Assembly (NCBI GenBank): GCA_002011125.2 | Contig: MTMF02000009.1 | Coordinates: 1,384,989-1,448,988, forward strand | From: Candidatus Hydrothermarchaeum profundi | GTDB taxonomy: Archaea > Hydrothermarchaeota > Hydrothermarchaeia > Hydrothermarchaeales > Hydrothermarchaeaceae | DNA: 64,000 nt | Direction: 5' to 3' | In this document: piece by piece, positions 5,044-46,788 of the stretch | Position numbering within the stretch: position 1 is the first letter of the stretch | Layout of the letters: every line of letters begins with the position of its first letter | Position numbers and translations under genes: made by a program | The notes under the pieces: generated by a model | Told to the model about the DNA's origin: nothing | Seen by the model: the letters and a program-made list of their open reading frames with translations, nothing else | Databases searched by the model: none

Positions 5044-5164
5044 CTCTTTCGTAATAATTGCTCATACTTTTTTTAACTTATTCCCTAAGCTACTAATAGA
5101 ACTTTGCATTCACAGTTCTAAAAATGATTAGAAAACGACATTAAAAATAAGAAAATGAAAGTAG

Positions 5165-5238
5165 TGGACCCGCCGGGATTTGAACCCGGGGCCTCTCGCA
5201 TGCCAAGCGAGCGATCTTCCAGGCTGAGCTACGGGCCC
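5165..5238 (-). tRNA. tRNA-Ala(GGC)
   Basis: Reverse complement GGGCCCGTAGCTCAGCCTGGAAGATCGCTCGCTTGGCATGCGAGAGGCCCCGGGTTCAAATCCCGGCGGGTCCA; cloverleaf, anticodon GGC. Confidence 0.95.
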
Positions 5239-5250
5239 ATTTTTGAATTT

Positions 5251-6723
5251 TCACCGATTATTATTACTCAGTTCTCGGTCTACAAAGGATGGCAGTAGGA
5301 CCTGTTCGAATTTTTGGATTTCTACAGGATACTTTGCGGTTAAGCATCCCATGCATAAATCATTTTCTCGTAGTCCTATAGCTTCAGTTAACCCTTCTAT
5401 ACTTAAATATTTTAAGGAATCCGCACCAATTATCTTTCTAATAGCCTCAACATCTCTCCCAGAAGCGATTAGTTCCCTATCAGTGGGCATATCTATTCCT
5501 AGTTTACATAAAGATTTTATCGGCGGGCATCCCACTCTCATATGTACCTCCTTTGCACCAGCTTCCCTCAATAAGCTGATTATCCTTTTGGAAGTGGTTC
5601 CCCGTACTATGCTGTCATCAAAAATAATAATATTCTTCCCTTCGATTTCTGAGGCCATGGGATTCAGTTTTAGCCTAACCGCCAACTCTCTCGCTTGCTG
5701 ATGTGGCAGTATGAATGTCCTACCTACATATCTGTTCCTTATCAAACTTTCTCGATAAGGTATGCCTGAGGCATTTGAATAGCCGAGGGCAAAAGGAATT
5801 GCAGAGTCAGGTATTGGCGAAACGAAATCAGCATCTATATCGTCTTCCTCTGCGAGTATTCTACCGATCTTCTCCCTTACATCATATATGGGAATGCCAT
5901 TCAAAATAGAGTCTGGACGAGAGAAGTATACGTACTCAAACATGCAGTAAGCCTTTCTACTACGCTTAAACGCACGGATGCTTTTAATTTCCTCTCCATC
6001 TATTAAAGCTATCTCACCCGGTTTTATATCTCTCAAAATTCTTGCACCCAATACATCAAAGGAAACACTTTCTGAGGATATCATTATTAGGTCATCGTTT
6101 TTTCCGAGAGATAGAGGTCTTATTCCCAGAGGATCTCTAACTGCTATTAAATTATCGTCTGTTAGGATAACGAGGGAGTAGGATCCTACAAGCTTTTTCA
6201 TTACTTCTGTTATCGAATATACGATATCCTCAGACTTTACATATTCTCTAATTATCAGATGGGCGATTACTTCAGTATCTGAGGTTGATATAAATGCTTG
6301 CCCAGCTTTTTCGAGTTTTCTACGTAACTCCATAGAATTCACTATATTTCCGTTGTGGCATATCGCTAATGTTCCCATAGAGTGCCTAACGACAAAAGGC
6401 TGTGCATTCTCGATTCTAGACTCCCCCGTGGTAGAATACCTCACGTGCCCTATACCCACATAACCTTTAAGGCTTTCAAGAGTTTTAAGATCAAAAAATT
6501 CTGTGACAAGGCCCATGCCTTTTTCAGTGTGAAAAGACCCATCATAAGTTGTTATACCACATGATTCCTGACCCCGATGTTGTAAAGACAGCAGAGAATA
6601 AAAGAGATAAGGGGAAACATCCTGCTCAGAACGCGAATATACCCCCGCAACACCGCACTTATCTCTAGGTTTGATAAGGCGGTATGAAGACCTATCCTCA
6701 ATGATTTCTTTTGTTCCAGGCAT
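5251..6723 (-). CDS. purF: Amidophosphoribosyltransferase
   Basis: KCGV catalytic Cys, [26 protein letters not shown]; start uncertain (nearest ATG is 6723, inside rpl37e). Confidence 0.95.
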
Positions 6724-6865
6724 ATTTACGCAACTTTTTGGTTCTTCCAAATCCGCAGGATGCACAATACCCATGTTTGGCGTGAAAAGAATTTTTCCCG
6801 CATCTTCTGCACCTTATATGTAGGCGCTTATTCCTTTTTCCTTTTGAAGGTGTTCCTTTTGACAT
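6698..6865 (-). CDS. rpl37e: 50S ribosomal protein L37e
   Basis: [27 protein letters not shown] zinc finger. Confidence 0.95.
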
Positions 6866-19591: not shown

Positions 19592-19890
19592 TAGGGCGAG
19601 CTGGAGGGCATCTTTCGCCTGCTAGTCAGGTGAGGAAACTCCGCCCATCATTGCGGAACCCGACCTCTCGTAAGAGAGGAGGCCGAGAGGCCTAGCTCTG
19701 GAGCAGAAACGATACATCCCTGCGGTGATGATGATTGCAGAGCATGAAGGTCCGCAGGGCATGGTGAAACGGCCAACTTCGGGGATGCAAGCTCAAACAA
19801 TCGCCAATGAGCATCCGCACGAGGCGAGTGGTAGAGCGCTTAGACGAATGATGCCTTTAACAGAAGGCGGGTTACTCCCAGCACGCCCTA
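19592..19890 (+). ncRNA. rnpB: RNase P RNA, archaeal type A
   Basis: P1 TAGGGCG/CGCCCTA; GAGGAAACTCCGCCC and ACAGAAGGCGGGTTA (P4); P8 and P9 tetraloop hairpins; P6 TGCGG/CCGCA; P15-P16. Confidence 0.93.
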
Positions 19891-37091: not shown

Positions 37092-38120
37092 ATGGGCAAA
37101 CTCCCTTTTGAAATGGATAGGAAAATAGTTGTTAAGTGTAGAGCATCAACTAATCCAGAGTATGGTAAAATGCCGGAAGAAAGGGGGATTAGAGAATATA
37201 TAAATTATGGAGTTATAAATCTTGATAAACCCCCGGGGCCAACCTCTCATGAAGTTGTTTCGTGGGTAAAGAAGATACTAGAGATAAAAAAAGCGGGACA
37301 CGGCGGAACACTAGATCCTAAAGTATCTGGTGTTTTACCAATCGGTCTTGAAGAGTCAACAAAAATTATACAAACGCTTCTGCCAGCCGGTAAAGAATAT
37401 GTTTGTCTAATGAGACTCCATAGTAATATAGAAGAAAATGAGGTCTCAAGAGTTTTCAAAGAGTTTGAAGGGGAAATTTATCAGAGGCCACCGGTAAAGT
37501 CGGCTGTAAAAAGAAAGCTGAGAAAAAGAACAATCTACTATATCGAGATACTTGAAGTTGATGGGAGGGACATATTATTTAAAGTTGGATGTGAGGCAGG
37601 AACTTATATAAGAAAACTTTGCCATGATATAGGGGAAGTAATAGGGGTTGGGGCACATATGGTAGAATTAAGGAGAACCAAGAGTGGGTCCTTTAAAGAT
37701 GAAGATTCAGTAAAATTACATGATGTCATGGACGCGTATTCTTTTTGGAAAGAAGATGAAAACGAAAAATTTCTCAGAAAAGTCATTTGGCCTGTAGAGA
37801 AAGCGGTAGAACATCTTCAGAAAATAATAGTCAGAGACGGCGCAGTAGATGCTATATGTCATGGAGCAAATCTCGCTGTACCCGGGATATGCGAACTTGA
37901 TGCCGATATAAAACCAGGGGATTTGGTCGCTCTTTTTACTTTAAAAAACGAGCTAATCGCGATAGGTCAAGCAAAAATGGAGACCAGAGATATCCTATTA
38001 GAAAACTCAGGAATCGCTGTTAAAACCAAGAGGGTCGTAATGAAGACAGGGACCTATCCAAGGCTATGGAAATCTAAGCAAGCCGGGGTAGCCGAGACCG
38101 GACCAAGGCGCCGGCCTTGA
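37092..38120 (+). CDS. cbf5: H/ACA and tRNA pseudouridine synthase Cbf5
   Basis: DKPPGPTSHEV, GHGGTLDP, GTYIRKLC, PUA domain, YPRLWK; the frame ends inside tRNA-Ser. Confidence 0.96.
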   Translation: MGKLPFEMDRKIVVKCRASTNPEYGKMPEERGIREYINYGVINLDKPPGPTSHEVVSWVKKILEIKKAGHGGTLDPKVSGVLPIGLEESTKIIQTLLPAGKEYVCLMRLHSNIEENEVSRVFKEFEGEIYQRPPVKSAVKRKLRKRTIYYIEILEVDGRDILFKVGCEAGTYIRKLCHDIGEVIGVGAHMVELRRTKSGSFKDEDSVKLHDVMDAYSFWKEDENEKFLRKVIWPVEKAVEHLQKIIVRDGAVDAICHGANLAVPGICELDADIKPGDLVALFTLKNELIAIGQAKMETRDILLENSGIAVKTKRVVMKTGTYPRLWKSKQAGVAETGPRRRP

Positions 38121-38169
38121 GAGCCGGTTGAGCATATGCTCAGCATGGGTTCAAATCCCATCCCCGGCG
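38082..38169 (+). tRNA. tRNA-Ser(TGA)
   Basis: GCCGGGG acceptor, CCGGC-CT-TGA-GA-GCCGG anticodon arm, long variable arm, GGTTCAAATCC, discriminator G. Confidence 0.95.
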
Positions 38170-38229
38170 TAAATTTTATTTATTTTCAGAAAGACGACTC
38201 AAATTAGATATTTATTATGAAACTACTGG
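38156..38229 (+). repeat. Direct repeat copy 1 (tRNA-Ser 3' end plus about 60 nt), att-like
   Basis: 69/74 identical to 38818-38891 by manual alignment. Confidence 0.9.
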
Positions 38230-38366
38230 CAAAAATTAACTGATAGGGTCTCAGGAGGATGCAACGATTTCGTATTCAAAGGATGGCTACTGTGAGAAAA
38301 GAAAGTACATCGAGAGCGAAGCATGAGAATAAAAGCTTAAATACGTTAAGATTCGAAGGGGTGGAT

Positions 38367-38582
38367 ATGGATAAGCGTAAGTTTAACGTGGTAATCGAGA
38401 AGGACGAGGACGGTTATTATATCGCCACTGTTCCTTCTTTGCCCGGCTGTCATACACAAGCTAAGAATTTGGATGAGCTAATGAAGCGCGTGAAGGAGGC
38501 TATCGAGCTCTATCTTGAGGTCGAAGAAGAAGCAGGCGATGTTGAAACCGAATTCGTAGGGGTGCAGGTAGTTGAGGCTTAG
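38367..38582 (+). CDS. hicB: HicB family antitoxin (short form, no DNA-binding domain)
   Basis: FNVVIEKDEDGYYIATVPSLPGCHTQAKNLDELM..VKEAIELYL. Confidence 0.9.
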   Translation: MDKRKFNVVIEKDEDGYYIATVPSLPGCHTQAKNLDELMKRVKEAIELYLEVEEEAGDVETEFVGVQVVEA

Positions 38583-38792
38583 ACCTCTTCCGCCTGAAAA
38601 GGTCATACGCGCCCTGGAGAAAGCTGGTTTTGTGCGGGTGAGGCAGAAAGGCAGTCATGTTTTTATGAGACATCCTAATGGGAGAACAACAATAGTTCCA
38701 TATCACAAGAAAGAAAATATAGAAGAGGGCTTTTGAGAAAGATAATCAACGACGCCCAGATGACAGTTGAAGAGTTCATGAAGCTGACTTAG
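38572..38792 (+). pseudogene. hicA: HicA toxin with a 1-nt frameshift near 38720
   Basis: TTG start MRLRPLPPEKVIRALEKAGFVRVRQKGSHVFMRHPNGRTTIVPYH..; premature TGA; -1 frame continues RGLLRKIINDAQMTVEEFMKLT*. Confidence 0.85.
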
Positions 38793-38817
38793 ATTTACCA
38801 GTAAAAATGCGCTGATG

Positions 38818-38891
38818 TCCCATCCTCGGCGCTAATTTTACTTATTTTCAGAAAGACGACTCAAATTAGATAGTTATTATGAAACTACTGG
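38818..38891 (+). repeat. Direct repeat copy 2
   Basis: TCCCATCCTCGGCGCTAATTTTAC...GAAACTACTGG. Confidence 0.9.
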
Positions 38892-39146
38892 TAAATTAAT
38901 GGATATAACTTACGGGATAGGCAATTTTTAGATTCTATTTTCAAAAAGTTCACAATATACACCATTATATGGATAATGTTGATAACTTTTATTAAAGTTC
39001 ATTTTATACAAATTAATTTTTAATCTTCAAATTATTTGCTTTTTTACTTTAAAATTATCACGAATGAGATCTAAGTTTAAATCGTTAGCTTTTTATTCAA
39101 TTAATAAAAAATCTTTTATGAAACTTATCTGTTCGGGGGGTCCTTC

Positions 39147-39653
39147 ATGGAAATGCGTAGAAGTGAAAGAAAAATGGACAAAAAAGGAATAGATGAGGTC
39201 CTTGTTGAGACCCTTATCGGCAATTTGGCAACTACGCGTGATGGTGTTCCGTACACTATACCAATACAATTCTTATATGAACCTAAGGATAAGGCAATAT
39301 ACTTTCATGGGGCTAGTGAGGGTAGGAAGATTGATAATATTAAAGAAAATCCTAAGGTCTGTTTTAGCGCATTTCAGCTCATAGGTTTAATATGTGCAGA
39401 TAAAGCCTGCGAGTATGATCAGAGTTTCAGGAGTGTTGTCATCTTTGGCACAGCTACCTTCGTAAAAGATGCTGATAAAAAATTTGAAGTTCTAAAGGGC
39501 TTTATGGAAAAATATGCCAAAGATCATCCGGCTCCTATACCTGTGACGAGATCTATGGCTGCAAGGACTACAATTATTAAACTCAGTATTGATGAGATTA
39601 GTGGAAAACAAAATATAGAGGGCACAATACACTTTCCAGAAAAGGAAAGGTGA
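39147..39653 (+). CDS. Pyridoxamine 5'-phosphate oxidase-like flavin-binding protein (NimA-like)
   Basis: MRRSER, PYTIP..IYFHGA.EGRK..NPKVCFS, FRSVVIFG, ISGK. Confidence 0.85.
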   Translation: MEMRRSERKMDKKGIDEVLVETLIGNLATTRDGVPYTIPIQFLYEPKDKAIYFHGASEGRKIDNIKENPKVCFSAFQLIGLICADKACEYDQSFRSVVIFGTATFVKDADKKFEVLKGFMEKYAKDHPAPIPVTRSMAARTTIIKLSIDEISGKQNIEGTIHFPEKER

Positions 39654-39686
39654 AAATTATACTGTAAATAATTTATGCTGTTGCCT

Positions 39687-40571
39687 TTAGGTTCTCATTA
39701 AACTTATTGCAGTAAGCATATCTTCAATACTTGCTTTAGCTCCACTAGCTACCTTATGACCTCCGCCCCCAAAGATCTTTGCAAGCTGAAGCACGTTAAA
39801 TCTTGTGTGGGTTCTAAGTTCGATTCTACCACTTATTCTTGAATATACTAAAATTATATCGAAAGGTGCATCTCTGTGCTCTATTAGTTTATTGGTTGCG
39901 ATGTACACAGGTATTCCCTCTGTTTGTAGAACAGCTACTTTTAGCCCACTAATATTTCTCACTTTAACCTTTCGCATTACTAGCTCTTCAAAGAAACTTA
40001 TTTTTTTCTCATACTCAGCTATTTCTCGCTTGTAATCATCTATAGCGGTAATGCCTTTTTCAGCAAGTGCCTTTGATAGCTGGAATAATTTAAAACTTAG
40101 AGACTGTTTTTTTCCTTTGTAATATGCGACTATTTTCCTCAGTTTGTCTGCTTCAGGACTCACCACATTATTAGTGTCTATTTCGTCTGCTATATTCTCA
40201 AAACCTGTAATACCAAAATACTTTGATACTAGACGACAGGCACTTTTGGTAGAACCGAGATAAAACTCTATATTATCTGGTCTTCTTACGGCTCCCCATA
40301 TGTGGTGGTCTATCCATACAACCCTTTCGCTTTTAGATGCTTCGGCTACAGATCTATTTGTACCAGAAATATCGAAGATATATAGGTTTTTAGCTTTAAT
40401 CTTCGTGAGTGTATAGGCTAAAATAGAGGGGGAGGAAAAGTATGCCCTACAGTTTCCTCTAGCTCTCATAAAAGTAGCGAGGCACAGTACACCATCGCTA
40501 TCAGCATGGGTCACAACATAGGCCATTTTAGGCGCACTGTGTATAGAAATCCTATTACTGGACTCTTCCAT
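39687..40571 (-). CDS. DHH/DHHA1 phosphoesterase
   Basis: THADSDG, WIDHH, FGGGGHKVASGA. Confidence 0.85.
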   Translation of the reverse strand: MEESSNRISIHSAPKMAYVVTHADSDGVLCLATFMRARGNCRAYFSSPSILAYTLTKIKAKNLYIFDISGTNRSVAEASKSERVVWIDHHIWGAVRRPDNIEFYLGSTKSACRLVSKYFGITGFENIADEIDTNNVVSPEADKLRKIVAYYKGKKQSLSFKLFQLSKALAEKGITAIDDYKREIAEYEKKISFFEELVMRKVKVRNISGLKVAVLQTEGIPVYIATNKLIEHRDAPFDIILVYSRISGRIELRTHTRFNVLQLAKIFGGGGHKVASGAKASIEDMLTAISLMRT

Positions 40572-40902
40572 AATTAACTCTTTTTAATAGTTTTTCAAAA
40601 ATTAAGTTTTATTCTTTAGTAAGTTCTAGCAAGAAAAAATGGTAATTTCCTAAAAATAAATTTTGCCCAGTAAACACTTTTTTTACTTGGTGAGATAATT
40701 ATCACGGTGTCGTAGCATCAGCAGTCTATATTAAGCTAAAAAAGGACAAAAAGGTTCTAGGTTCCTTTCTTTCCTATATTTTTACAAAAACATTCTGTGG
40801 GCTTTCGCAATATTTATAAATCTCGTTAAAATATTCCATTGTGCGGTTTGTAAAAACATAGATTTTATAATCGATATAAAATGATAATTTTATAAAGTGA
40901 TT

Positions 40903-40916
40903 GAAAAGATTTATAA
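40903..40916 (+). promoter_or_regulatory. Putative BRE/TATA promoter of the rps13 operon
   Basis: GAAAAGA-TTTATAA about 45 nt upstream of the rps13 start. Confidence 0.5.
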
Positions 40917-40958
40917 GTTAAAAAATATAAGGATTAGGGCTAACTCGGAGGAAAGATC

Positions 40959-41435
40959 TTGGAAAAGAAAGAAGAGGAATTTAAATATCTAGTAAGGATC
41001 GCTGGTACGGATATAAATGGGAATAAAAAGATTTCATATGGGCTTACTCGTATAAAAGGAATTGGTAATAGGATGGGAAAGGTGATATGTGAAGCGGCGG
41101 GGATTGATCCAAATAAAAAGGTAGGGTACCTTACTGAAGATGAGGTAGAGAAGTTGGATAACATAATAGAGAATGTAGGCGGTATAGGCCTTCCAGGATG
41201 GCTATTGAATAGGAGGGTTGATTATACTACTGGTAAGAATATTCATGTTATCGGGTCTGACCTCATTATGAGCCTCAGAGAGGATATAAATAGGATGAAG
41301 AAAATGAAAAGCTACAAGGGAATTAGACATGCTTTAGGATTACCCGTAAGAGGTCAGCGAACCCGTACGAGTTTTAGGAAGGGTGTCATAGTAGGGGTTA
41401 TGAGGCGAAAGATGGGGAAAGAAGCCAAAAAATAA
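40959..41435 (+). CDS. rps13: 30S ribosomal protein S13
   Basis: LTRIKGIG, YKGIRHALGLPVRGQRT; TTG start. Confidence 0.97.
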   Translation: MEKKEEEFKYLVRIAGTDINGNKKISYGLTRIKGIGNRMGKVICEAAGIDPNKKVGYLTEDEVEKLDNIIENVGGIGLPGWLLNRRVDYTTGKNIHVIGSDLIMSLREDINRMKKMKSYKGIRHALGLPVRGQRTRTSFRKGVIVGVMRRKMGKEAKK

Positions 41436-41450
41436 TAGGAAGGACTGTTT

Positions 41451-41981
41451 ATGGGAGACCCTAAAAAACGTAAGAAAAAGTATGATACACCACGGAATCC
41501 TTGGCAAATAGAAAGGCTAGAAGAAGAAAGGAAATTAATGAAGAAATATGGCCTAAGAAACAAGAGAGAGTTATGGAGGATGGAGACTCTTCTCAGGGGA
41601 TTTCGTAGGCAAGCTAGGAAATTGCTTGCCCTCGAGACTCCTCAAGCTAAAAAAGAAGAAATCCAACTTCTTGAAAAATTAAGAAGATTAAAAATGCTTA
41701 AGCGGAATTCTACCCTAGATGATGTCTTAGCATTAAAAATAGAAGATATCCTTGATAGGAGACTTCAGACCTTGGTATTTAAAAAAGGGTTGGCGAATAC
41801 ACCAAAACAAGCACGCCAGTTTATCGTTCATGGACATATCTCCATTAAGGGAAGAAAAGTTACAGCACCAAGTTATCTGGTGGGAAGAGAAGAAGAAAAC
41901 TCTATTGGGTATATTGAATCTTCACCACTAAAAAATCTCGAAGCTCAGACGAGTAGTGAGAAAGTGAAAGAGGAGGCGTAA
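41451..41981 (+). CDS. rps4: 30S ribosomal protein S4
   Basis: [31 protein letters not shown]. Confidence 0.97.
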
Positions 41982-41983
41982 AA

Positions 41984-42379
41984 TTGGTTAAGGAAGCTAA
42001 GGCTTGGGGCGTTGCTCATATCTATTCTTCTTTCAATAATACAATTATACACATAACAGATATAACTGGATCAGAAACCATATCAAGGTGGTCTGGGGGA
42101 AGGATAGTTAGGGCCCATAGAGAAGAGAGTTCTCCATATGCAGCTATGCAGGCAGCTATGAGGGCAGCTGAAGAGGCTATGGAAAAGGGTATAGTAGGGG
42201 TCCACATTAAGGTAAGAGCACCGGGGGGAAGTGGACCGAAAACTCCGGGTCCAGGAGCCCAGCCTGCGATTAGAGCTCTTGCAAGAGCTGGTCTTAAGAT
42301 AGGTAGGATTGAAGATGCAACTCCTATCCCTCACGATGGAACTAAGAAAAAAGGAGGAAAGAGAGGTAGGAGAGTATGA
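41984..42379 (+). CDS. rps11: 30S ribosomal protein S11
   Basis: [27 protein letters not shown]; TTG start. Confidence 0.97.
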
Positions 42380-43158
42380 AAGTAGAAATACTTGAAGAAA
42401 CTGATAACTCAATGAGGTTTATATTATCAGAAGCCCACCCAAGCTTGGCTAATGCTTTAAGGAGGATAATGGTATCTGAGGTTCCAACTTTGGCGATTGA
42501 GGATGTAACGATTATTGAGAATACATCATCGCTGTATGATGAAATTATTGCTCATAGATTGGGTTTGATTCCGATTAGAACTGATCTTGATATTATGAAC
42601 TTGAGAGAGGAGTGTGTTTGCAAGGGAGAAGGATGTCCAAATTGTACATTAAAGCTTACTTTAAACTCTACGGGAAAAGATAGGATTATTACAGTGTATT
42701 CACATGATTTAAAGTCAGAAGATGAAAGATTAAAACCGATAGAGGGTATCCCAATTATAAAATTAGGAAAAGAGCAAAAACTAGTATTAGAGGCAGAAGC
42801 TATCCTTGGTAAGGGAAAAGATCATGCTAAATGGCAGCCAGCGGTAGTGGGATATAAATACTACCCAGCAATAGAGGTAAATGGGGAATGTGAAGACTGT
42901 AAAAAATGTGCAGATGTTTGCCCTGTTAACATATTAGAATCAGAAGATGGCAAAATCAAAGTAATCGATGAAATGAAATGCACTTTGTGTAAGTCTTGTG
43001 TAGAAGCATGTGAAAAAAAGATTATTAAGGTTAGAGGGGATGATAAAAAATTTATATTCACGTTAGAGAGTACTGGAGCATTAAAACCTCGAGAAATACT
43101 GAACAAAGCATGTGAAATATTAGAAGAAAAAGCCAGGGAACTGGCTACGCTATTATAG
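42376..43158 (+). CDS. rpoD: RNA polymerase subunit D (Rpo3) with ferredoxin-like domain
   Basis: [24 protein letters not shown], two CxxCxxCxxxC motifs. Confidence 0.96.
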
Positions 43159-43243
43159 CGGGGGTGGCCGAGTCTGGTCAAAGGCGCAAGGTTGAGGGCC
43201 TTGTTCCTAAGTGGATGCGAGGGTTCGAATCCCTTCCCCCGCA
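43158..43243 (+). tRNA. tRNA-Leu(GAG)
   Basis: GCGGGGG/CCCCCGC acceptor, CAAGG-TT-GAG-GG-CCTTG, variable arm, GGTTCGAATCC. Confidence 0.95.
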
Positions 43244-43256
43244 CTATGGTGATGGT

Positions 43257-43619
43257 ATGAAGAAGCCAAAATCAACAAATCCGCTAATGGTAGAACTTAT
43301 CCAAGACTTAATAGCTAGGTCGCGTGAGGAAAAATCCCTAATTTGGAGAGATATAGCTAAGAGATTATCCAGATCTGCATCCTTGCGTGCAGAAGTTAAT
43401 ATTAGTAGAATCGCCCGCTACTCTAAGAAGGGTGAGACCCTCGTGGTCCCTGGGAAGGTATTGGGATCCGGATCTATTAACCATCCCGTTAATGTAGCAG
43501 CATTAAATTTTTCTGCGAAAGCTAAGGAGAAAATAATAAAAGCAGGTGGTAAGTGCTTATCTCTAAGGAATCTAATGGAACAAAACCCCAAAGGAACAGG
43601 GGTTAAAATTATTGAGTGA
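43257..43619 (+). CDS. rpl18e: 50S ribosomal protein L18e
   Basis: STNP..IWRDIA, VVPGKVLGSG; true ATG lies after tRNA-Leu. Confidence 0.95.
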   Translation: MKKPKSTNPLMVELIQDLIARSREEKSLIWRDIAKRLSRSASLRAEVNISRIARYSKKGETLVVPGKVLGSGSINHPVNVAALNFSAKAKEKIIKAGGKCLSLRNLMEQNPKGTGVKIIE

Positions 43620-43625
43620 TGTGCT

Positions 43626-44057
43626 ATGAAGGTTATAGACGGGAAGGATCGTATATTAGGGAGACTTGCCTCTTATGTAGCTAAGGAACTCTTGAGAGGT
43701 GAAGAGATTACAATAGTTAATGCTGAAGAGTGTATTATATCAGGTTCAGAAAAAAATATACTTGAAAAATATAAAGCAAGAAGAGCGAGGAAGAGTCTTG
43801 TGAATCCTGCGAGACATGGCCCCTTCTTTCCGAGGCGCCCTGAGGGTATTGTTAGGAGAGCTGTAAGAGGAATGATCCCGTATAGGAAAGCTAAAGGACG
43901 AGAATCATTCCGCAGATTACGTGTCTATGTAGGAGTACCAAAGGACTTTGAGGGGATAGAGTTCGAGAAGATAGATGTACCTAAGGTTGATAAACTTAAG
44001 CTCCCAAAATACATAAAGGTTAAAGAGCTAAGTAAGCAGCTAGGTGCCAAATTCTGA
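43626..44057 (+). CDS. rpl13: 50S ribosomal protein L13
   Basis: ILGRLASYVAK, GPFFPRRP..VRGMIP. Confidence 0.96.
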   Translation: MKVIDGKDRILGRLASYVAKELLRGEEITIVNAEECIISGSEKNILEKYKARRARKSLVNPARHGPFFPRRPEGIVRRAVRGMIPYRKAKGRESFRRLRVYVGVPKDFEGIEFEKIDVPKVDKLKLPKYIKVKELSKQLGAKF

Positions 44058-44067
44058 GGTGATATGA

Positions 44068-44466
44068 ACGAAAGTAATTCAAACATCTGGTAAGCGGAAG
44101 GCCGCTATAGCAAGGGCGACTTTGCGGGAAGGAAAAGGTAGAGTAAGGATAAATAGAACACCATTAGAGATCTTGGAGCCAGAGATGGCGAGAATGAAGA
44201 TAATGGAGCCTTTGCTCATTGCTGGAGACCTAGTAAATAAAGTCGACATTGATGTAAATGTAAGGGGTGGAGGGTTTATGGGTCAAGCAGAAGCTGCTAG
44301 AATTGCCATAAGTAGAGGACTTGTTGAGTTTAGTGGCGATGTTAAACTGAAGGAAGTTTTTTACGAGTATGATAGAACTATGATAAAAGGCGACCACAGG
44401 AGAAAAGAACCTAAGAAATACGGCGGTCCTGGAGCAAGAGCTAAAAAACAAAAATCTTACAGGTGA
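44068..44466 (+). CDS. rps9: 30S ribosomal protein S9 (apparent ACG start)
   Basis: [37 protein letters not shown]; the conserved N-terminus needs a start at ACG 44068. Confidence 0.95.
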
Positions 44467-44471
44467 GTTTA

Positions 44472-44672
44472 ATGATAATTCCTATTAGATGTTTTAGTTG
44501 TGGCGCGGTAATTGCTGATAAATATGAAAAATTTAAGAAAAGGATAAGGGACGAAGAACCGAAGAAGGTCTTAGACGATTTAGGAATAAAGAGGTATTGT
44601 TGCAGGAGGATGATACTTAGTCAAGCAGATTTCCTAGAGGAAGTAATAGAATTTGAAGTAAAGGGGCCGTAG
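44472..44672 (+). CDS. rpoN: RNA polymerase subunit N (Rpo10)
   Basis: [18 protein letters not shown]; stop lies within tRNA-Pro. Confidence 0.96.
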
Positions 44673-44737
44673 GGTAGCTTGGACCATCCTCCCAGCTTGG
44701 GGTGCTGGTGACCCGAGTTCAAATCTCGGCGGCCCCA
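44663..44737 (+). tRNA. tRNA-Pro(GGG)
   Basis: GGGGCCG/CGGCCCC acceptor, CCAGC-TT-GGG-GT-GCTGG, GTTCAAATC. Confidence 0.95.
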
Positions 44738-44749
44738 CTTGGGGGTAAT

Positions 44750-44953
44750 ATGTTGAAACTTACTAAGTTCGAAAAAGCGCGGATAATAGGTGCGAGGGCT
44801 CTCCAGCTATCGATGGGGGCTCCTCCGCTAATAAAAGTCACAGGAGATGAGGTGACTCCCATACATATCGCCATAAAGGAGTTAGAGATGGGCGTTATTC
44901 CAATTACTGTTAAAAGGAAGATGCCTGAAAAAATGGAACTCGGAGGAGAATAA
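44750..44953 (+). CDS. rpoK: RNA polymerase subunit K (Rpo6)
   Basis: [22 protein letters not shown]. Confidence 0.96.
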
Positions 44954-46200
44954 TGAATCCGACTATAATAGAGGATGTTATAGCTCGAAAGATACTGGAC
45001 AGCAGAGGAAATTGGACAATTGAAGTGGATATATTAACTAGATGTGGATTTGGGAGATGTGCAGCACCGAGTGGGGCTAGTAAAGGAGTACATGAAGTTT
45101 CCTCATATCCTGAGGGAGGTGTGGAGAAAGCTATTGTGGAGGTGGAGGAAACTATAGCCCCAGAGATGATAGGTATGGATTCTGAAGAACAGGATATAAT
45201 AGATGGGATACTGAGGGAAATAGACGGTACAGACAACTTCTCTAATATAGGGGGGAATACGGCAGTTGCTATATCATTAGCTAACGCTAAGGCTGCAGCG
45301 TCTTCATATGGGATCTCTCTTTTTCAACATTTGGGGGGATGTTTTTCCAATCAGCTTCCGTATCCTCTAGGCAATGTTATCGGTGGAGGAGCTCACTCTC
45401 AAAATTCAACGGATATCCAGGAGTTTTTAGTTTTGCCTACAGGGGCTAAGAATATAGAGGAAGCATTAAAAGTTAATTCAGAAGTACACAAAAAGACAAG
45501 GGAGATACTATCTGGTAAACATGATGGAGTAATTGGTAAAGGCGATGAAGGTGCGTGGGCTGCGAACATAACAGATATAGAGGCTCTTGATGTGTTAACT
45601 CAGGCTACGAGAAGGGTCTCTGAAGAAACTGGGGTAGAGATAAGGCTTGGCATGGATGTTGCAGCTTCTGAACTATGGGATGAAAAAAGTGGAGAATACA
45701 TTTACCAGAAAGAAAGAAAGAGTCGCACTCGCGAAGAACAGATAGATTATATGATAGACCTCATAAAGCAATACGACCTATATTATGTTGAAGATCCAAT
45801 TCAGGAAAATGATTATGAAGGGTTTGCTCAAATTAGCAGAGAAGTGAACTGCTTGATATGTGGGGATGACCTTTATGTTACAAATTATGAGAGATTAAAA
45901 AAAGGTATCAAAATGAAATCCTCTAATGCCATTATCATTAAACCTAATCAATGCGGAACATTAACTGATACATACCGAACAATAATATTGGCAAAAAGCC
46001 ATAATCTTATTCCGGTATTATCCCATCGTTCAGGGGAAACGGTTGATGATACAGTTGCACATTTGGCGGTAGCATTTAGTAGCCCTATTATAAAAACAGG
46101 GGTTGTAAGTGGAGAAAGAATAGCGAAGCTAAATGAACTTATAAGAATTAGCGAAGAGTTAGGAACAAGAGCAGAAATGGCACATTTACGGGAGGTATGA
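44953..46200 (+). CDS. eno: Enolase
   Basis: ILDSRGN, PSGAS, GDEG, KPNQ, SHRSGET, ERIAKLNEL. Confidence 0.96.
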   Translation: MNPTIIEDVIARKILDSRGNWTIEVDILTRCGFGRCAAPSGASKGVHEVSSYPEGGVEKAIVEVEETIAPEMIGMDSEEQDIIDGILREIDGTDNFSNIGGNTAVAISLANAKAAASSYGISLFQHLGGCFSNQLPYPLGNVIGGGAHSQNSTDIQEFLVLPTGAKNIEEALKVNSEVHKKTREILSGKHDGVIGKGDEGAWAANITDIEALDVLTQATRRVSEETGVEIRLGMDVAASELWDEKSGEYIYQKERKSRTREEQIDYMIDLIKQYDLYYVEDPIQENDYEGFAQISREVNCLICGDDLYVTNYERLKKGIKMKSSNAIIIKPNQCGTLTDTYRTIILAKSHNLIPVLSHRSGETVDDTVAHLAVAFSSPIIKTGVVSGERIAKLNELIRISEELGTRAEMAHLREV

Positions 46201-46203
46201 AGC

Positions 46204-46788
46204 GTGGAAGAACTTTTAACTACCCTGGATAATTATCTTGCCGCAGGTACTCATATTGGTACTCAGCAGAAGAATGCGGATATGAAGCCATATATTTATA
46301 GAGTTCGGGCTGATGGACTCTATGTTCTTGACGTTAAAAAATCTGATGAACGAATTAGAATTGCAGCAAAGTTTCTCTCAAAGTATCCTGCAGATAAAAT
46401 ACTTGTAGTTTCACGGAGGCAGTATGGTCAAAAACCGGTAGAAGAGTTTGCGAGGCTTACAGGTGCGGTAGCTGTTACAGGCAGGTTTATCCCCGGTACT
46501 TTAACGAATCCCGCTCTGGATAGTTTTATTGAACCCGAAGTACTTATAGTAACAGATCCCAGAGGAGATGAGCAAGCATTAAAAGAAGCGAGTGATATCG
46601 GAATACCTGTTGTCGCTTTGTGCGATACTGATAATTCAGTTTCGTTTGTGGATATTGTAATACCTACTAATAATAAAGGTAAAAAAGCTTTAGCAATAAT
46701 ATATTGGCTACTGGCTAGAGAGATTCTTAAAAATAGAGGAGAATTGCCCGAGGATTTTCCTTCATTAGAAGAGTTTGGGGAAGGATAA
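46204..46788 (+). CDS. rps2: 30S ribosomal protein S2
   Basis: [24 protein letters not shown]. Confidence 0.97.

Follow-up and report, generated by a model that had tools for sequence, protein, structure and literature searches.

Transfer RNAs (tRNAs) punctuate the transcripts of mitochondria, where incomplete stop codons are completed by polyadenylation. Among bacteria, coding sequences (CDSs) whose 3' end runs into a downstream tRNA or transfer-messenger RNA (tmRNA) gene have been surveyed, and that survey reports 250 such overlaps among 115,660 tRNAs and tmRNAs (PMC4131195). The overlap of a CDS stop codon with a tRNA has hitherto passed for an oddity of a few bacteria. We describe such overlaps in an archaeon, Candidatus Hydrothermarchaeum profundi. 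The DNA analysed is a stretch of 64,000 nucleotides (nt) from contig MTMF02000009.1, called the window in the following, in which the stop codons of cbf5, rpoD and rpoN lie inside the genes for tRNA-Ser(UGA), tRNA-Leu(GAG) and tRNA-Pro(GGG).

Stop codons inside tRNA genes

The three junctions are formed by the following features (positions are those of the window; ORF, open reading frame):

37092..38120, + strand: cbf5, pseudouridine synthase (ORF; Pfam TruB_N, TruB_C_2, PUA, DKCLD)
38082..38169, + strand: tRNA-Ser(UGA) (ARAGORN; Rfam RF00005, 57.4 bits)
42376..43158, + strand: rpoD, RNA polymerase subunit D with 4Fe-4S domain (Pfam RNA_pol_L, RNA_pol_A_bac, 4Fe-4S)
43158..43243/43244, + strand: tRNA-Leu(GAG) (ARAGORN; Rfam RF00005, 54.2 bits)
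44463..44672, + strand: rpoN, RNA polymerase subunit N (Pfam RNA_pol_N)
44663..44737/44738, + strand: tRNA-Pro(GGG) (ARAGORN; Rfam RF00005, 51.4 bits)

All three tRNAs were called by both ARAGORN and Rfam, the cut-off of the Rfam tRNA model being 29 bits. Comparison of the ORF ends with the tRNA calls gives overlaps of 39 nt for cbf5/tRNA-Ser, 1 nt for rpoD/tRNA-Leu and 10 nt for rpoN/tRNA-Pro, which bears out the sizes claimed in an earlier note on this DNA. The 5' half of tRNA-Ser encodes the final 13 codons of cbf5 together with its stop TGA (38118-38120), which is the anticodon triplet of the tRNA. The rpoD stop is TA|G, its third base being supplied by G1 of tRNA-Leu, while positions 1-10 of tRNA-Pro carry the terminal rpoN codons AAG GGG CCG and the stop TAG, i.e., U8-A9-G10 of the tRNA. 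For each of these anticodons, the whole genome holds a single gene. In the terms of the bacterial survey (PMC4131195), all three loci combine a valid tRNA with a Pfam-supported upstream CDS of the same orientation that has its stop inside the tRNA.

A second sample (X2) has contigs that show 0 differences over 37423-38209 and 43008-44488, which span the cbf5/tRNA-Ser and rpoD/tRNA-Leu junctions. A third sample (X3) matches just a small part of the DNA, at 90-99%, and was left out of the analysis. The rpoN/tRNA-Pro junction is bridged by one sample only (X1, possibly the assembly's own source sample), and the same junction, with TAG on tRNA positions 8-10, is present in 11 other genomes. Since the rpoN junction recurs in other genomes and the second sample is identical at the other two, an assembly error that hides an in-frame stop further upstream, which the earlier note had named as a way for its claim to fail, is very unlikely. 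These data confirm that the CDS-tRNA overlaps in this window are real. The one tRNA behind purF, by contrast, had been described as free of overlap, and it is, purF ending 12 nt before it:

5251-6813, - strand: purF (Pfam)
5164..5238, - strand: tRNA-Ala(GGC) (ARAGORN)

The genome is a metagenome-derived assembly of 19 contigs, with 49 tRNA calls by ARAGORN and 47 by Rfam. Five of the approximately 48 tRNAs (approximately 10%) are overlapped by a Pfam-supported upstream gene (overlaps as negative distances in nt):

cbf5/tRNA-Ser(UGA): -39
rpoD/tRNA-Leu(GAG): -1
rpoN/tRNA-Pro(GGG): -10
LOR/SDH-ArgZ-like enzyme gene/tRNA-Gly(UCC): -10
DUF434/DUF5616 protein gene/tRNA-Arg(UCU): -15

TAG ends four of the five overlapped genes, and cbf5 ends in TGA. 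Approximately 10 further tRNAs lie 0-12 nt behind a gene, examples being RpiA/tRNA-Ser(CGA) at 0 nt, a CBS gene/tRNA-Val at 2 nt and an FKBP gene/tRNA-Leu(CAA) at 3 nt. Three candidate overlaps in this genome, formed by frames of 67-80 amino acids (aa) with no Pfam match, were not counted. Another ARAGORN call, a tRNA-His(atg) containing a 227-nt intron, lies over an opposite-strand tRNA-Ala (1655432-1655748 of contig C9, which carries the window); it is absent from the Rfam list and most likely false.

The overlap frequency observed here is above chance, given that none of 41 tRNAs is overlapped in an unrelated complete archaeal genome (G039) and that the bacterial figure is the one cited above. 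Among 53 tRNAs in loci of other archaea, we found no real overlap. In G026, which belongs to the same order and is of good quality, only the rpoN overlap is Pfam-supported among 44 tRNAs; two more candidates there (frames of 202 aa and 174 aa) have no Pfam match and were likewise left out of the count.

For the relatives, an ORF-based scan covered the operon region of 40 related genomes and of 80 public loci, one duplicate contig being left out. RpoD identity to the closest relatives is only 50-64%. The junctions compare as follows:

Upstream gene/tRNA-Pro: overlap in 15/16 genomes (-10 in 12, -1 in 2, -15 in 1); +9 in 1
Upstream gene/tRNA-Ser(UGA): overlap in 9/10 evaluable genomes (-39, -10, -1, -56)
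rpoD/tRNA-Leu: overlap in 2/32 loci (-1); nine further loci at 0-4 nt
LOR/SDH gene/tRNA-Gly: overlap in 5/19 loci with a called tRNA, and in 1 more by eye (-10, -15)
DUF434 gene/tRNA-Arg: overlap in 5/8 (-10, -15)

Most genomes have cbf5 before tRNA-Ser, and three have an MTS-family methyltransferase gene there. In Methanomicrobiales, 0/13 rpoN/tRNA-Pro junctions overlap, with gaps of 0-22 nt. Overlap recurs across the phylum in changing geometries and is broader than the earlier note stated. For the three loci that the note singled out, the survey of relatives gives a divided answer: overlap is the rule at tRNA-Pro and tRNA-Ser, but it is rare at rpoD/tRNA-Leu and absent from rpoN/tRNA-Pro of Methanomicrobiales.

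The geometries can be read from the tRNAs themselves. For every tRNA and each of the three frames in which it can be entered, we noted where the first stop occurs, and these first in-frame stops match every observed overlap. They fall at positions 10, 39 and 50 inside tRNA-Ser and at positions 10 and 15 inside tRNA-Pro. tRNA-Leu reads U8-G9-G10 and hence has no early stop, and one frame would continue into L18e; it is because this tRNA offers no early stop that the rpoD overlap is rare and limited to G1. As the geometries are simply the stops that each tRNA happens to hold, the pattern is the one expected from repeated spacer loss that survives where the tRNA soon supplies a stop.

The junctions of several relatives have features of their own. 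In G001 (L111, contig C8, about 1590-2690), a tRNA-Leu-like 5' piece lies right after the rpoD stop and an intact tRNA-Leu follows approximately 1 kb on; in G014 (L243, contig C154), a tRNA-Arg-like start follows the DUF434 stop, with the called tRNA 119 nt on. Both pieces could be duplicated tRNA ends from an integrated element. Introns are predicted in the tRNA-Ser(UGA)-like and tRNA-Pro genes of several relatives (L122, L129, L033, L114). Two tRNA-Ser-like genes of relatives are labelled tRNA-Leu with an intron by ARAGORN, and anticodon assignments there are tentative.

Promoters, transcription units and neighbouring genes

A motif search on 25 stand-alone tRNAs, i.e., those without a close upstream frame, gave a consensus resembling a B recognition element (BRE) and TATA box, AAAAATTTATAT, which starts mostly 33-44 nt upstream. 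Promoters were scored from -46 to -30, with the 3'-terminal 70 nt of 1502 long ORFs as null and p <= 0.05 as threshold. The motif passes this threshold in 15/25 stand-alone tRNAs versus 1/18 tight ones, and the single tight tRNA that has it sits behind an 80-aa frame without Pfam match. Scores are -5.6 (p = 0.95) for tRNA-Ser(UGA) and 0.6 (p = 0.49) for tRNA-Pro(GGG); tRNA-Leu(GAG), with a weak TATA-like GAAATATTAGAAGA at -44, scores 4.9 (p = 0.13). Among the relatives, none of the 32 tRNA-Leu, 16 tRNA-Pro and 10 tRNA-Ser loci reaches the 95th percentile of the null with the BRE/TATA matrix. A TATA box in the longer rpoD-tRNA-Leu spacers of relatives (GTATATATAC, seen by eye in two genomes) was considered as well, but the matrix places 0/9 long-spacer loci above threshold and the candidate was dropped.

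The internal promoters that could have undone the earlier note's claim are thus not seen at stand-alone distance before the three tRNAs or in any relative scored, and for the transcripts themselves we argue from sequence. A search for RNA sequencing runs that contain positions 41400-45000 returned none. To reach its stop, a message has to run on through the 5' portion of the tRNA; together with the missing promoter motif, this leads us to infer that the tight tRNAs are co-transcribed with the upstream gene. Because they have no recognisable promoter of their own and are the sole genes for their anticodons, tRNA-Ser, tRNA-Leu and tRNA-Pro most likely must be cut out of messenger RNA (mRNA). Distances to the preceding gene range from -39 to +12 nt, while the gene that follows tRNA-Leu or tRNA-Pro begins after a spacer of 12 nt.

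The genes and signals around the three tRNAs are:

38170..38190, + strand: T-rich stretch directly 3' of tRNA-Ser (sequence reading)
38259-38582, + strand: HicB-like antitoxin-family gene (Pfam)
39147-39653, + strand: PNPOx-like gene (Pfam)
39687-40571, - strand: DHH-family gene (Pfam)
40959..42379, + strand: genes for ribosomal proteins S13, S4 and S11, upstream of rpoD (ORF, Pfam)
43257..43619, + strand: L18e, probable ATG at 43257 (ORF, Pfam)
43626..44466, + strand: genes for ribosomal proteins L13 and S9 (ORF, Pfam)
44750..46788, + strand: rpoK (probable ATG at 44750), enolase and S2 (ORF, Pfam)

The gene order S13-S4-S11-rpoD / L18e-L13-S9-rpoN-rpoK-eno-S2 is that of the archaeal cluster (Pfam on 20 ORFs). 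The earlier note had taken all three tRNAs to be embedded in this operon, which holds for two of them. The L18e ATG lies 12-13 nt 3' of tRNA-Leu and is preceded by a Shine-Dalgarno-like GGTGAT, and the rpoK ATG lies 12 nt 3' of tRNA-Pro behind a Shine-Dalgarno-like GGGGGT. tRNA-Ser, on the other hand, is not operon-embedded: it closes the transcription unit L34e-cmk-L14e-cbf5. Archaeal transcription terminates at T runs, and the T-rich stretch behind this tRNA is likely an oligo-T terminator of archaeal type; the HicB-like, PNPOx-like and opposite-strand DHH genes then lie between tRNA-Ser and the S13 operon. The joint at tRNA-Ser is a hot spot of gene turnover, with the HicB-like, PNPOx-like and DHH genes here and the MTS methyltransferase gene before tRNA-Ser in several relatives. 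At tRNA-Leu, a frame in phase with L18e is open through nearly the whole tRNA (43164-43619), so that ORF finders start L18e at GTG 43164 inside the tRNA and not at ATG 43257.

Possible mechanism and competing explanations

The arrangement suggests mRNA-tRNA co-transcripts without spacers, in which approximately one-third of the tRNA genes would have no promoter of their own and either overlap a same-strand gene or follow it at 0-12 nt. Upon loss of the spacer and of the gene's own stop, translation would enter the tRNA and end at the first in-frame stop there, and the stops captured in this way would be UA+G1, U8-A9-G10 (UAG), U13-A14-G15 or the UGA anticodon. Ribonuclease (RNase) P and tRNase Z would free the tRNA, with a cut at +1 once it folds, and each maturation event would sever the upstream cistron before its stop and create a non-stop message. 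On intact RNA, translation would proceed to the embedded stop, with terminating ribosomes keeping the 5' half of the tRNA unfolded. Ribosomes on a cut fragment would run to its end and need rescue, and Pelota-type rescue and 3'-5' decay would clear it. A UA end, completable by an A-rich tail, would be left on the rpoD fragment alone, whereas the rpoN and cbf5 fragments would finish with sense codons.

Components for such a pathway are encoded. The genome has a Pelota gene and, side by side, two genes with RNase PH domains that we take to encode the core of the exosome, which is the archaeal tailing enzyme; we know of no archaeal tmRNA. The window itself contains:

19596..19886, + strand: RNase P RNA gene (RF00373, 241.9 bits; contig C9:1404584-1404874)

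The statement of the earlier note that an RNase P cut at +1 would take away the stops of cbf5, rpoD and rpoN follows from the geometry, and the genes for RNase P RNA and Pelota are present.

Four of the five overlapped genes ending in TAG, the decoding of UAG has to be considered as well. Two further loci of the same contig bear on it:

C9:1316900-1321900, approximately 63 kb before the window: pyrrolysine (Pyl) cassette tRNA-Pyl(CUA), pylSn, pylSc, pylB, pylC, pylD (five proteins above NCBIfam cut-offs)
C9:1898904-1900310: MttB-family methyltransferase gene with one in-frame TAG within the Pfam match

tRNA-Pyl(CUA) is preceded by a good BRE/TATA, and the in-frame TAG of the MttB-family gene is the classic pyrrolysine site. 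TAG terminates 212/1176 (18%) of the open frames of at least 250 aa, and the distance to the next stop is not shorter after TAG than after TGA. The genome is thus Pyl-equipped, with TAG still mainly a stop. Of the features that define Genetic Code 34, in which every TAG is read as pyrrolysine (preprint 10.1101/2024.09.30.615893), pylT, pylS and pylBCD are present, and disuse of TAG as a stop is not seen at 18%. The sections of that work on distribution place Pyl machinery in a single Hydrothermarchaeota family and describe high TAG use in recently equipped genomes. Partial read-through may occur at the UAG stops of rpoD and rpoN, a point absent from the earlier note. Read-through would extend RpoD by 34 residues through the whole of tRNA-Leu to a TGA (43258-43260) that overlaps the L18e start (ATGA), and RpoN by 13 residues to a TGA within tRNA-Pro. 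Since relatives of other families share the overlaps, Pyl cannot explain their origin.

We consider it probable that the spacer-less co-transcripts result from recurrent spacer loss in this lineage and that overlap is a tolerated by-product, not a gene-tuned device. Tolerated crowding is favoured because relatives differ in which gene overlaps, in the geometry and even in whether there is any overlap, and because unrelated genes show it; its neutrality, like co-transcription, cleavage and the non-stop fate, is deduced from the geometry, the recurrence, the missing promoter motif and the enzyme genes that we observe. A selected, regulatory role of the embedded stop is the main competitor. In that case, the RNase P cut would make the last cistron non-stop and quickly degraded, which would lower the low-demand Cbf5, RpoD and RpoN versus the ribosomal proteins of the same transcript and couple their output to tRNA maturation. 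It fits that each of the three tRNAs is directly preceded by a non-ribosomal gene, that tRNAs after rpoD and rpoN have very short spacers in several phyla, that the gene-order passages of PMC10833476 list a tRNA-Leu between rpoD and L18e for the archaeal alpha cluster, that the rpoN overlap is retained in 15/16 genomes of the class and that neither the three tRNAs nor the relatives' loci have a promoter motif of their own. However, rpoD overlaps in just 2/32 loci, the cbf5 overlap varies in geometry and its gene is replaced by the methyltransferase in three genomes, metabolic and unknown-function genes overlap likewise (at tRNA-Gly and tRNA-Arg), the rpoN/tRNA-Pro junctions of Methanomicrobiales do not (0/13), and tRNA-Ser stands outside the operon. 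In addition, a protein short of its last 2-13 non-conserved residues may still work after rescue, as no tagging of non-stop products is known to us in archaea. The same observations speak against the earlier note's suggestion that non-ribosomal genes of the superoperon are down-tuned, and we regard regulatory punctuation as rather unlikely, even though it retains some force, given that the rpoN overlap has persisted and that the position of tRNAs right behind rpoD and rpoN is conserved. A more elaborate version seems quite unlikely to us: the tRNA-embedded stop would be a selected switch between a translatable state, with the 5' half unfolded, and a tRNA-precursor state, with the cistron non-stop, tying RNA polymerase subunits, Cbf5 and others to tRNA maturation in a domain whose sole rescue is of the Pelota type, and Pyl read-through at UAG would be a third outcome in which RpoD, ending exactly on the L18e start (ATGA), could couple L18e translation through the tRNA.

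Non-stop mRNA would hardly arise if the tRNAs were expressed independently, mainly from leaderless starts or from promoters of their own within the 3'-terminal part of the preceding gene, and if read-through mRNAs were seldom cleaved, tRNA folding being blocked by terminating ribosomes or by the coding context. The TATA-like site before tRNA-Leu would suit this, as would the motif missing in the scanned range before 10/25 stand-alone tRNAs and the internal promoters described for Thermococcus kodakarensis in genes of these clusters, one of them for rpoN (PMC4247193, in its passages on promoters). Yet the scores of tRNA-Ser and tRNA-Pro do not exceed the median for random ORF ends, with relatives alike, and an overlap of 10 or 39 nt keeps the 5' half of the tRNA in the mRNA; with no T-run terminator inside the tRNA, the whole tRNA is most likely included. 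RNase P and tRNase Z of Haloferax are, moreover, reported to process tRNA-like elements in longer transcripts, and independent expression appears decidedly improbable. It is more doubtful still that UAG is at least partly Pyl and the rpoD and rpoN stops accordingly leaky. The complete pylT-pylSn-pylSc-pylB-pylC-pylD cassette, the MttB-family gene with its one in-frame TAG, the TAG at the end of 4/5 overlapped genes and the reported combination of Pyl machinery in one Hydrothermarchaeota family with high TAG use in newly equipped genomes (distribution sections of 10.1101/2024.09.30.615893) would agree with it. But TAG ends 18% of long frames with the next stop no nearer than after TGA, the same TAG overlaps occur in relatives of other families, which according to the preprint have no Pyl, and TAG is merely what U8-A9-G10 and UA+G1 spell, cbf5 using TGA. 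Finally, a metagenome-derived assembly in 19 contigs and ARAGORN boundaries that at times include one extra 5' base invite suspicion of assembly or frame errors or misplaced tRNA boundaries. Such an artefact is extremely unlikely, as ARAGORN and Rfam agree on the boundaries, the independent sample is identical at two junctions, the rpoN junction is alike in 11 other genomes and Pfam supports the frames up to their C-terminal domains.

Several points weigh against tolerated crowding and the co-transcription on which it builds. G026 has no tRNA at 0-12 nt, so crowding is not uniform within the phylum. The relatives are not independent and most are fragmentary metagenome-assembled genomes, and the baselines consist of two genomes and one neighbourhood. 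Retention of the rpoN overlap in 15/16 genomes despite RpoD identities of 50-64% could mean selection and not inertia, and other phyla also have tRNAs immediately behind rpoD and rpoN (Methanomicrobiales rpoN-tRNA-Pro at 0-22 nt, 13 loci), which fits a positional role. As for the promoters, the matrix was trained on the stand-alone tRNAs and inflates their scores, 10/25 of these score low as well, a promoter farther upstream or of another type would escape the scan from -46 to -30, and tRNA-Leu does have its weak site (p = 0.13).

Should the cuts really take place, these organisms would routinely make non-stop mRNAs from essential genes, and the system would offer a test bed for archaeal non-stop handling without tmRNA, for competition between RNase P and ribosomes and for stop completion by A-rich tails outside organelles. 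If the overlaps are merely tolerated crowding, they show how much overlap archaeal translation can bear. For annotation, gene callers that bar CDS-tRNA overlap will give these genes wrong ends.

Comparison with known systems

The junctions would resemble mitochondrial punctuation in that tRNAs lie flush with coding regions in what we take to be one transcript, and in that excision by RNase P and RNase Z would set the mRNA ends. For rpoD, the end of the message would be UA, which an A-rich tail could complete to UAA, exosome-core genes being present here. In contrast to mitochondria, only some junctions are flush, overlaps reach 39 nt where mitochondrial genes abut, the cuts at rpoN and cbf5 would leave no partial stop for a tail, and the next genes retain a 12-nt leader with a Shine-Dalgarno-like motif.

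Within archaea, a tRNA-Pro follows rpoN in Methanomicrobiales as it does here, and tRNA genes reportedly occupy the same places of the cluster in early papers on Haloarcula marismortui. The alpha cluster S13-S4-S11-rpoD-tRNA(Leu)-L18e-L13-S9-rpoN (PMC10833476) has the same order and the same place for tRNA-Leu; its order is given for one genome, and stop-codon overlap is not mentioned in the passages on order. In Thermococcus kodakarensis, a tRNA-Lys in the 5' untranslated region of TK0306 shares a transcript with a protein gene, but the CDS and its stop are outside the tRNA, as described in the relevant passage of PMC4247193. Full-text literature searches, which covered neither subscription-only papers nor supplementary files, returned no report of an archaeal CDS-tRNA stop overlap.

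Bacteria provide both looser and closer parallels. The tRNA of E. coli secG-leuU is part of a protein-gene transcript and released by processing, with the stop outside the tRNA in the account of PMC2241853. A tRNA-Sec nested in selB of Alphaproteobacteria (PMC8124441; also Table 4 of PMC4131195) is likewise a functional tRNA gene within a same-strand CDS; there, however, the CDS spans the tRNA and has been proposed to serve feedback, whereas in the present case the CDS reaches into the tRNA with its 3' end only. The overlaps between CDSs and tRNA or tmRNA genes collected by Hudson, Lau and Williams (2014; PMC4131195), which include smpB-ssrA in Carsonella, share with ours the definition and the inference of non-stop messages. 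In their survey, such overlaps are very rare and amount to few events in close relatives, as opposed to approximately 10% of one genome's tRNAs and five junctions phylum-wide in the present case, which moreover involves the core genes rpoD, rpoN and cbf5 in a domain without tmRNA. By our analysis, the bacterial overlap is the closest precedent, and the junctions described here represent a frequent, phylum-wide archaeal variant of it with core genes.

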